Shown here: positions 51,052-53,147 of the stretch, one piece after another
How the letters are laid out: the number at the start of each line of letters is the position of its first letter
How positions within the stretch are numbered: position 1 is the stretch's first letter
Source: a virus
Direction: 5' to 3' (one strand)
DNA: 64,000 nt
Virus record (IMG/VR): IMGVR_UViG_3300045125_000040
Span: 64,001 to 128,000 of that record
The notes under the pieces: model-generated
What the model saw: only the letters and a program-made list of their open reading frames with translations
The model's database searches: none
Told to the model about the DNA's origin: nothing
Position numbers and translations under genes: made by a program

Positions 51052-51055
51052 TATA

Positions 51056-51129
51056 AGCGGGTGGGAGGTATAGTTATCTTGCCGGTTTCATACGCCGGTA
51101 AAAGTGGGGGCAGTTCCCACCCGCTTCCA
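51056..51129 (+). tRNA. tRNA with CAT anticodon (Met or Ile2), non-canonical
   Basis: Anticodon arm CCGGT-ttCATac-GCCGG; T arm GTGGG-ggcagtt-CCCAC; ends TCCA; 3' acceptor strand appears 2 nt short. Confidence 0.7.
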
Positions 51130-51234: not shown

Positions 51235-51310
51235 GGACTCTTAGCTCAGTAGGTAGAGCATCGGACTTTTAATCCGCTGGTCTTGGGTTCGAACCCCAAA
51301 GAGTCCTCCA
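51235..51310 (+). tRNA. tRNA-Lys(TTT)
   Basis: GGACTCT/AGAGTCC acceptor, ctTTTaa loop, GGTTCGAA, CCA. Confidence 0.95.
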
Positions 51311-51512: not shown

Positions 51513-51541
51513 TTGACAAGATAAGTAGATTGAGTTAGTAT
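51513..51541 (+). promoter_or_regulatory. sigma70-type promoter upstream of tRNA-Asn
   Basis: TTGACA-N17-TAGTAT. Confidence 0.55.
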
Positions 51542-51543
51542 AT

Positions 51544-51618
51544 TGGAGTGTGGCGCAGCGGTAGCGCAGGTGACTGTTAATCACTTGGTCGCAGGTTCGA
51601 ATCCTGCCTCTCCAGCCA
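51544..51618 (+). tRNA. tRNA-Asn(GTT)
   Basis: GGTGA-ctGTTaa-TCACT arm, GGTTCGAATCC, GCCA end. Confidence 0.95.
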
Positions 51619-51620
51619 GT

Positions 51621-51755
51621 TTAGAGAAGGCAGTATCGCATCACGGCTATGGATCTGCGGAGCTATAGCGAGGTCGGGAGATGAACCGTGAGGAGGCCAT
51701 CGTAACCTTGGAAACCCGGATACTGAAAAGAGGATGCATACTCGTTCCTTTCTAA
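51621..51755 (+). ncRNA. Candidate ~135-nt structured ncRNA directly after tRNA-Asn
   Basis: GC-rich island; nested helices TTAGAGAAGG/CCTTTCTAA, CAGTATC/GATACTG, TCACGG/CCGTGA, GCTATGG/CTATAGC. Confidence 0.6.
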
Positions 51756-51762
51756 TTTAATA

Positions 51763-51828
51763 GACTATGGGGTGGACGCCATAAATAGTCCCGTGAGGGT
51801 CCACGGTTAGACCCTCCTTTAATGGAGA
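51763..51828 (+). ncRNA. Candidate structured leader with alternative pairings upstream of the 51834 gene
   Basis: GACT/AGTC + TATGG/CCATA; loop GTGGAC matches GTCCAC; CCGTG/CACGG; GAGGGTC/GACCCTC. Confidence 0.45.
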
Positions 51829-51833
51829 GAAAG

Positions 51834-52110
51834 ATGAAGAAGTTTTTAATTGTTCTTACGTTTCTTGGTTTAATTGCTGCAACTCCAGCTAATGCATGAG
51901 TATCGCTATGGGTATGGTGGATACTATGGAGGATGGGGTCCAGGTGCAGCAGTTGGTGCGATGGCTGGTGCCGCTATTCTTGGTGGTGTAATTGGTGGTG
52001 CTATTGCCTCGCAGCCCTATTATGGTGGATATTATAATGGATACTATCCACGTAACTATTACTATTATAATGCTCCTCCTCCTGTTTACAACTATTATTA
52101 TGGATGGTAA
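51834..52110 (+). CDS. Small secreted Gly/Tyr-rich protein (indel after signal peptide)
   Basis: MKKFLIVLTFLGLIAATPANA signal peptide; GWGPGAAVGAMAGAAILGGVIGGAIASQPYY. Confidence 0.7.
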
Positions 52111-52386: not shown

Positions 52387-52462
52387 GCGGGTGTAGCTCA
52401 ACGGTAGAGCAGTCACTGCTCGCAGTGACAGGGTGTTGGTTCAAGTCCAGCCACCAGCACTA
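52387..52462 (+). pseudogene. tRNA-like element (Gly-like body, aberrant anticodon arm, no CCA)
   Basis: D arm TAGCTCAACGGTAGAGC and T arm GTTGG-TTCAAGT-CCAGC are intact; anticodon arm GTCACTGC-tc-GCAGTGAC; ends ACTA. Confidence 0.7.
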
Positions 52463-52585: not shown

Positions 52586-52660
52586 GCGGGTATAACTCAG
52601 GGGTAGAGTGTCAGCCTTCCAAGCTGTTCGTCGCTGGTTCGAATCCAGTTGCCCGCTCCA
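52586..52660 (+). tRNA. tRNA-Gly(TCC)
   Basis: GCGGGTA/TGCCCGC acceptor, ctTCCaa loop, GGTTCGAATCC, TCCA. Confidence 0.95.
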
Positions 52661-52739: not shown

Positions 52740-53147
52740 GTGACGAAAAAATATATGGCCTTCCTTAGACGACTGGCCATAAACAATCAAATGAAAATGA
52801 AACTCGCTGCGTGTCTTGTTATACGCAATGAGATCATTTCTATTGGTCTTAATTCTGATAAGTCACATCCTATGCAGAAAAAATTCTCAAAGAATAGTGA
52901 TGCGATCTTTAAACATGCAGAGGTTGACTGTATTATCAATGCTCTGCGTCATGTTGATCAAGAGGATTTGAAGTCTGCCACTCTTTATGTCCACCGTGTC
53001 AAGAGACAATACAAAGGAGATAAAGAGTGGTCTGATGGAATGGCTGAACCGTGCTGTGGTTGTTATAAAGCCATAGAGCATTTCGGTATCAAAAGGACCG
53101 TCTTTTCAACTGATGAAGAATCTAAATTTGGAGTCAGTTGGGTCTAA
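52740..53147 (+). CDS. Cytidine/dCMP deaminase-fold protein
   Basis: HAE and PCxxC zinc motifs. Confidence 0.85.
   Translation: MTKKYMAFLRRLAINNQMKMKLAACLVIRNEIISIGLNSDKSHPMQKKFSKNSDAIFKHAEVDCIINALRHVDQEDLKSATLYVHRVKRQYKGDKEWSDGMAEPCCGCYKAIEHFGIKRTVFSTDEESKFGVSWV

Follow-up and report, generated by a model that had tools for sequence, protein, structure and literature searches.

What kind of element occupies positions 51621-51755 of the DNA examined here, directly behind a tRNA-Asn gene? The window, a stretch of 64,000 nt, comprises bases 64001-128000 of the 158,790-bp IMG/VR phage record IMGVR_UViG_3300045125_000040, which is 96% complete and T4-like. The initial annotation had described an unassigned, highly structured RNA that starts 2 nt after the tRNA CCA and is GC-rich in an AT-rich genome. 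Both observations were borne out: tRNA-Asn (GTT) was located by ARAGORN at 51544-51618 (+; 67.9 bits with the Rfam tRNA model), its CCA ends 2-3 nt before the structured RNA, and the G+C content of 51621-51755 is about 0.50 compared with about 0.30-0.35 nearby. A loose tRNA cluster surrounds the element on the + strand of the window, for which ARAGORN also predicted tRNA-Met (CAT) at 51054-51128, tRNA-Lys at 51235-51310 and tRNA-Gly at 52586-52660. The tRNA-Met is absent from the output of the Rfam tRNA model even at E<=10 and may be atypical. Just upstream of tRNA-Asn, at 51513-51541 (+), lies the sequence TTGACA-17-TAGTAT, which matches 10 of 12 consensus positions and may serve as a sigma-70-like promoter. 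On the + strand no terminator-like site was found between this candidate and 52665, and co-transcription of the structured RNA with tRNA-Asn from the 51513-51541 site is plausible.

An exact 19-mer scan of viral contigs for the window element gave no match. True homologues were recovered, among chance matches, by a gapped pattern made from CAGTATC, GATACTG and CCGGA. A scan for the shared core (GGTCGGG..AACCNTGGRAACCCGG) yielded 43 viral stretches and 6 bacterial genome records, and a second scan, in which the P3 consensus was used and the core was left free, yielded 47 stretches, 38 of which were new loci. The covariance model R1, built on a 21-sequence MAFFT alignment (A2), returned 73 matches at E<=1e-3 (59 distinct) in viral contigs and six bacterial genomes, the sampling of the family being biased by the search patterns used. 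In the window R1 matched 51621-51755 (+) as a full-length family member (model positions 1-133 of 133, 106.3 bits, E 5.4e-21), with exactly the ends that had been proposed from the sequence, and this is the only copy in the whole 158,790-bp genome. The family thus comprises at least 59 distinct sequences from uncultivated phage contigs and from the genomes of Falsochrobactrum ovis, Pelagibacterium luteolum, a Rhizobium MAG and MAGs of Verrucomicrobia, Desulfobulbus and Terriglobia. This is a broad range of carriers, with records from Alphaproteobacteria, Verrucomicrobia, Desulfobulbus and Terriglobia, and the copies in bacterial genomes are probably prophage-borne.

Comparison of the window copy and two other members with 50,697 cultured-phage records by blastn revealed nothing beyond the tRNA, also within the T4 group. 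With Rfam 15, only tRNAs and chance matches were obtained for the window and none on the element, either at gathering scores or at E<=10, and six other members gave no family match at E<=1; RNase P, SRP, 6S, pRNA, riboswitches and small ribozymes are among the families without a match. Full-text literature searches, in which core sequences were also used as strings, returned no description of the family. It is therefore absent from Rfam 15 and from the literature searched, and is a new, uncatalogued and widespread phage RNA family.

The fold was derived from comparison of the family members, and all of its elements lie on the + strand. Helix P1 closes the molecule: its 5′ strand at 51622-51630, in which G51626 is bulged, pairs with CCUUUCUA at 51747-51754, a strand backed by the R1 match and by covariation, and all 8 pairs were changed on both sides within the family. 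P2 (CAGUAUC at 51631-51637, GAUACUG at 51719-51725) is stacked directly on P1 without a linker; 6 of its 7 pairs were changed on both sides and 93.6% of cells are paired. A seventh P2 pair, formed by the column before junction J2/3 and the G after CCCG, covaries as well, as C-G, G-C and A-U. J2/3 (51638-51645) ends in a conserved CACG (51642-45); the family consensus is ACACG, with column counts of 56/59 for A, 54/59 for C and 55/59 for G. Hairpin P3 (51646-51669) is formed in the window by GCUAUGG and CUAUAGC (51646-52/51663-69) and in most members by GAUGAGC../..GCCACAUC; here 6 of 6 pairs were changed on both sides and 97.7% are paired.

The center of the molecule is formed by two helices, S1 and S2. 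S1 pairs GAGGU (51670-51674) with ACCUU (51705-51709) in 100% of cases, its first pair being an invariant G-U wobble. The helix was invariant in the first set of sequences and covarying in the wider one, where three pairs covary: GAUCU/AGAUU, GGUCU/AGACU and, in locus L060, GUGGU/ACCAU were found, and the double swap of GG to UC with CC to GA occurs in 16 distinct sequences. S1 is accordingly assigned with high confidence. S2 would pair CGGG (51675-51678) with CCCG (51715-51718) and thereby cross S1 to form a pseudoknot. Since these strands never vary (59/59), conserved complementarity is the one argument for S2 and the pseudoknot, which we regard as likely, while the lack of a linker between S1 and S2 makes the arrangement sterically tight. 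S2 probably stacks on P2, as its 3′ strand continues straight into that of P2. Between the strands of S1 lies the variable hairpin P4 (51680-51701) with a GAUG/CAUC stem (51680-83/51698-701), in which all 3 modelled pairs covary; its length ranges from 0 to more than 60 nt, and it is absent in L060 and L140. In the segment 51705-51718 the S1 strand ACCUU (51705-09) is followed by the linker GGAAA (51710-14) and by CCCG (51715-18). Linker columns G119, G120, A122 and A123 are kept in 58-59 of 59 sequences, and position 121 is A in 29, G in 12 and C in 18. The resulting invariant core, CGAGGUCGGG ... AACCUUGGRAACCCGG, is exact in the window at 51669-78 and 51704-19. The remaining segment, 51726-51746, consists of an AAAA linker (51726-29), hairpin P5 with a GAG/CUC stem (51730-32/51741-43) and the loop G-AUGCAU-A, and a GUU linker (51744-46). 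P5 is carried by the three-way junction at P1/P2.

This structure was supported by both alignments of the family. In the MAFFT-only alignment 94.4% of cells were paired and 26 of 39 pairs were changed on both sides, with none of 500 shuffles scoring as high, and pairing fell to about 40% when partners were slid. In the model-guided alignment of 59 sequences the corresponding values were 93.9% and 33 of 40 pairs, again with 0/500 shuffles as high, and 37-42% after sliding. G-U pairs far outnumber A-C mismatches in the family (146 vs 27), which identifies the + strand as the RNA and places the structure at the RNA level; that the + strand encodes a genuinely structured RNA is thus close to certain. 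The minimum free energy of 51621-51755 is -37.6 kcal/mol, a stability at chance level (z = -0.19 against shuffles), and the reverse strand folds no better; it is the comparison of homologues, and not thermodynamics, that speaks for structure.

Most helices of the initial annotation reappear in this fold. Its closing helix 51621-30/51747-55 corresponds to P1, its CAGTATC/GATACTG helix to P2 and its GCTATGG/CTATAGC hairpin to P3, each now backed by homologues, and the CGGG/CCCG pairing that it had offered as a possible tertiary contact is the invariant S2. GATG/CATC, suggested as another tertiary contact, do pair, but as the ordinary stem of P4. The GAG/CTC hairpin near the 3′ end was likewise correct as P5; its supposedly T-arm-like loop is the palindrome AUGCAU and no T-loop. 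Two local helices were not supported: TCACGG/CCGTGA (51641-46/51686-91) would join the conserved junction ACACG to the loop of P4, which is variable, and other members contain nothing equivalent, and the CCTT (51706-09) of a proposed local GAGG/CCTT hairpin belongs to the covarying S1, paired with GAGGT at 51670-74.

The RNAs of the family are short (120-185 nt), and several deviating forms occur. In a GC-rich clade (L134-L171, e.g. L146:5553-5734) the RNA reaches 180-200 nt and the P4 insertion is far longer; S1 reads GAUCU/AGAUU or GGUCU/AGACU there, and the variable position of the linker is C (GGCAA). L140:7368-7447 and L161:3456-3535 match only model positions 13-100, a core without P1, P5 and P4, and L099:4107-4224 and L119:3499-3644 are without the canonical AAAA-P5-GUY part. 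Such reduced or aberrant members may represent minimal forms that occur naturally, or copies that have decayed.

The loop of P5 was found to be self-complementary throughout most of the family. AUGCAU at 51734-51739 (+) is one of about 16 different 6-nt palindromes that form the core of 53 of the 57 family loops, among them CUGCAG, CGGCCG, AGCGCU, GGGCCC, GUCGAC, UGCGCA, GCGCGC, GCAUGC, GUGCAC, GGCGCC, UGGCCA and UCUAGA, and two more loops are self-complementary if G-U pairs are counted. All three cross-loop pairs covary, with a complementarity of 91.8%; the middle pair, between adjacent bases, is complementary in 54 of 57. Adjacent bases cannot pair within one molecule, which makes an intermolecular loop-loop duplex the simplest explanation, and the alignment was not biased towards these pairs since they are not part of the model. 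From this pattern, a homodimer held together by kissing P5 loops appears probable, with the caveat that 6-nt palindromes could in principle also be sites at the DNA level. The dimerisation initiation site of HIV-1 is a hairpin loop in which purines flank a self-complementary stretch of 6 nt, and phi29 pRNA has an Rfam model. The P5 loop, likewise 6-nt self-complementary and purine-flanked, resembles the HIV-1 site without relationship in sequence or fold. It shares with pRNA that a phage RNA, often encoded near packaging genes, would oligomerise by loop-loop pairing, but sequence and fold are again unrelated, a single palindromic loop would lead to a dimer and not to a ring, and the Rfam scans of the window and six other members contained no pRNA match. 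RNA dimerisation has been reviewed (PMC7357161).

The history of the locus was approached through 33 related phage loci that were fetched via the deaminase-like gene at 52740-53147. When 51619-51835 was compared with them by blastn, matches were confined to the last ~60 nt (~51768-51830). Of the 21 relatives that matched, 16 have a conserved leader 3-6 nt behind the tRNA-Asn CCA, with the ATG of a small protein that has a signal peptide next in line, and in the other five (L029-L032, L002) the leader is preceded by a TTGACT...TATAAT promoter. The structured RNA is missing from all 21 relatives that have the conserved leader. Since the leader directly follows the tRNA-Asn CCA or the promoter in these phages, the window carries ~145 extra bases (~51625-51770; boundaries taken from blastn and from inspection of the relatives' sequences), made up of the RNA gene and a spacer at 51756-51771 (+). 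The comparison shows the structured RNA to be an accessory, horizontally acquired component of this T4-like phage. The leader itself spans 51766-51833 of the window, ahead of the gene for the small secreted protein. All 21 relatives have it, and its two hairpins (GGAC/GTCC; GAGGGTC/GACCCTC) show some covariation. The leader also contains a near-invariant ATAAATAG that reads TATAAATA in most relatives, which is a T4-type late-promoter box, and part of the leader's conservation may for this reason be promoter conservation.

Across the family, two kinds of genomic neighborhood were observed. Large AT-rich phages carry the RNA as one of the units of a tRNA array, as in L037, where it lies 3 nt behind tRNA-Ala and 8 nt ahead of tRNA-Glu. 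Among the 59 members, the distance from an upstream tRNA 3′ end to the RNA is at most 10 nt in 6, and that from the RNA to the next tRNA at most 15 nt in 7; a tRNA on the same strand lies no more than 500 nt away in 12. Most members lie away from tRNAs, on the same strand as head and packaging modules and in front of or inside them. This is the situation in small, mostly GC-rich phages, where the RNA adjoins such genes: it is located upstream of TerS and TerL in L105, L111 and L122 and upstream of TerL in L108, L112, L113 and L119. In L096 it separates TerL from portal, and in the L095/L100 clade TerL from the major head protein. The next genes downstream have no relationship to one another (tRNAs, TerS, portal, tail fibre, methyltransferase, unknowns). 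An all-against-all blastp of flanking ORFs gave lineage-specific clusters only and brought forward no candidate protein partner, and none of the results indicated a binding partner or ligand of the RNA. The exception to lineage-specific clustering was a T5orf172/MUG113 gene in four mutually unrelated loci (L106:5706-6023, L111:637-1257, L116:9423-9890, L121:2560-2877), located 0.2-2.8 kb from the RNA. T5orf172/MUG113 domains are similar to GIY-YIG nucleases and common on mobile DNA; the mobility of the RNA gene may be connected with these neighbours.

The RNA was also compared with known classes. The initial annotation had been unable to match it to RNase P, tmRNA, SRP or HDV-like cores and had taken it for a phage non-coding RNA, a view with which the Rfam 15 result at E<=10 and the strong covariation agree. 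It had also considered a tRNA-like RNA, a proposal that found no support: the RNA lacks a cloverleaf and a T-loop, and 51619-51760 gave no match with ARAGORN or with the tRNA, tmRNA and TLS models of Rfam. The 5′ half resembles RNase P RNA in the order of its parts (P1, P2, a P3 hairpin and then a CGGG/CCCG helix), and in the P4 region of RNase P RNA such a CGGG/CCCG helix is flanked by GAGG..GUC(C)GGG and GAACCCGG. However, the helix follows P2′ in RNase P RNA and is nested inside P2 here, and the RNA of the window is one third of the size and has no specificity domain; with the topology differing and the Rfam RNase P models silent, the resemblance was judged to be due to chance. A riboswitch or cis-regulatory leader would be expected at a consistent position in front of genes of related function, which the family does not show. 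The analogy drawn earlier with RNAs C and D of the T4 tRNA region stood as far as position is concerned. T4 rnaC (species 1) and rnaD (species 2) are small stable RNAs of about 120-140 nt encoded directly after a tRNA (annotation of NC_000866), and they are presumably freed by tRNA-processing enzymes, as proposed below for the window RNA. Homology was not found, the best overlapping match of R1 with filters off being 4.5 bits (E 1.9). T4 rnaC ends in a tRNA-like T-arm (GGTTCGAATCC) that the window RNA does not have, and the new family, unlike rnaC and rnaD, also occurs in small phages without tRNA clusters.

Taken as a whole, the findings lead us to favor, by a modest margin over an even chance, the reading that the element represents a stable, trans-acting, dimeric structured RNA of a new family. 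Positions 51621-51755 (+) would then be the gene for a compact non-coding RNA in which P1 closes the molecule and stacks on P2, P3 and the S1/S2 pseudoknot emerge from the top of P2, and an optional P4 sits in the pseudoknot loop. Two such molecules would probably join by the P5 loop-loop kiss into a symmetric dimer. In this phage the gene was acquired by horizontal insertion, which placed it behind tRNA-Asn and ahead of the leader, with its late promoter, of the gene for the small secreted protein. It would probably be transcribed together with tRNA-Asn from the promoter-like site at 51513, and the host nucleases that trim tRNA precursors would probably release a discrete, end-paired RNA, as for its siblings that lie between tRNAs in arrays; we give this excision of a trans-acting RNA by tRNA processing slightly better than even prospects. 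The dimer would act in trans as a decoy, sponge or modulator of a conserved protein or RNA machine or of a small molecule. An action in trans on something common to all bacteria is suggested by the core, which is invariant across phages of unrelated hosts; binding of a host factor or ligand as the function is nonetheless put forward tentatively, as less probable than the trans-acting nature itself. A more far-reaching version, which is speculative and rather unlikely, would make it a new class of phage RNA that works as a symmetric homodimer and whose pseudoknot core binds a universal bacterial component, or acts on it catalytically; this might be a factor of translation, transcription or tRNA processing, or a nucleotide of immune signalling. 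The RNA would then be a mobile module for counter-defence or host takeover, exchanged horizontally between phages of unrelated hosts as tRNA genes are.

The element might instead act in cis, the nascent RNA working on its own transcript or on RNA polymerase, either by processive antitermination like the put RNA of HK022 or as an RNA-stability or processing module, and so secure transcription through long late operons and tRNA arrays. The same-strand position in small phages directly upstream of TerS/TerL or between terminase and portal or capsid genes fits such a role, several members have a -10-like box a few nucleotides upstream and would be the first thing transcribed, and RNA polymerase as a universal target would explain the invariant core. 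Yet the downstream genes, from portal, tail fibre and methyltransferase to TerS and tRNAs, are unrelated, in arrays the next tRNA follows 7-12 nt later and the element would be cut off the transcript, a conserved intermolecular palindrome has no obvious role in a nascent cis element, and 21 close relatives with the same downstream genes dispense with the RNA. We consider an action in cis to be improbable. The last of these facts also means that the RNA cannot be a core packaging component in the T4-like phage. An element acting as DNA, for recombination, packaging or protein binding, would suit the nearby terminase genes of small phages and the 6-bp palindromes, which would be palindromes in DNA too, and the accessory nature of the insertion in this phage would suit such an element as well as a functionless, decaying remnant. 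These possibilities are very remote in our estimate: compensatory changes maintain the helices, and the excess of G-U over A-C is strand-specific and RNA-like, the window copy scores as an intact, full-length member, and the core is invariant across very different phages.

A self-cleaving or otherwise catalytic RNA is a further alternative, which we rate as even less probable than a cis-acting element. Theta ribozymes are compact, pseudoknotted and encoded beside tRNA genes of Caudoviricetes (PMC10879173), and the order S1-S2-hairpin-S1′-linker-S2′ corresponds to the P1-P2-P3-P1′-J-P2′ nested pseudoknot of HDV-like ribozymes, down to the invariant G-U wobble with which the first helix starts; the complete conservation of the core is also as in ribozyme active sites. 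In HDV-like/theta ribozymes, the cleavage-site G1 of helix P1 lies within +/-5 nt of the tRNA 3′ end, and changes of the catalytic C to A, G or U abolish activity (PMC10879173). The corresponding S1 G of the window RNA, at 51670, is 51 nt from the CCA, inside the fold and clamped by P1 and P2, and the equivalent of the catalytic cytosine, the first position of J4/2, is A in the window and varies in the family as the linker position 121 described above. The class is further defined by a nested double pseudoknot in which P3/L3 is essential; the window RNA has the same strand order, and P4, its equivalent of P3/L3, is variable and in two loci missing. Moreover, the window RNA has the additional helices P1, P2, P3 and P5, and neither HDV-family nor other Rfam ribozyme models matched the window at E<=10. 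The new family stems from freshwater and soil phages, while theta ribozymes stem from gut phages. Membership in the HDV-like/theta class was rejected on the position of the cleavage site and on the catalytic C. The probability left over by the trans-acting dimer and the three alternatives is assigned to something else.

A universally conserved pseudoknotted core is rarely found in a new RNA class, and earlier cores of this kind proved to be ribozymes, riboswitch aptamers or protein decoys. The present family is well defined by covariation, occurs in phages whose hosts differ widely and behaves like an accessory gene in its gain and loss, and the built-in dimerisation signal that its loops suggest would be unusual among natural bacterial or phage RNAs. 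As a short and easily synthesised RNA it is a concrete object for biochemistry, and its copies L129 and L132, which lie (probably in prophages) in the cultured bacteria Falsochrobactrum ovis DSM 26720 and Pelagibacterium luteolum CGMCC 1.10267, make it accessible to genetics. It also bears on the old question why T4-type phages keep stable RNAs other than tRNAs in their tRNA clusters.

Two minor observations were made downstream of the element. At 52387-52460 (+) lies an odd tRNA-like gene (50.3 bits with the Rfam tRNA model; a 4-base anticodon according to ARAGORN), the anticodon arm of which is the perfect palindrome GTCACTG-CTCG-CAGTGAC and can be drawn as a 7-bp stem with a 4-nt loop or as 8 bp with 2 nt; a decoding role is unlikely. 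In 51834-52110, the signal-peptide ORF (MKKFLIVLTFLGLIAATPANA) ends at the TGA at 51897-99 and a Gly/Tyr-rich ORF in another frame starts from the ATG at 51892, an arrangement that reflects either a pair of very small genes, a frameshift or an error in sequencing.
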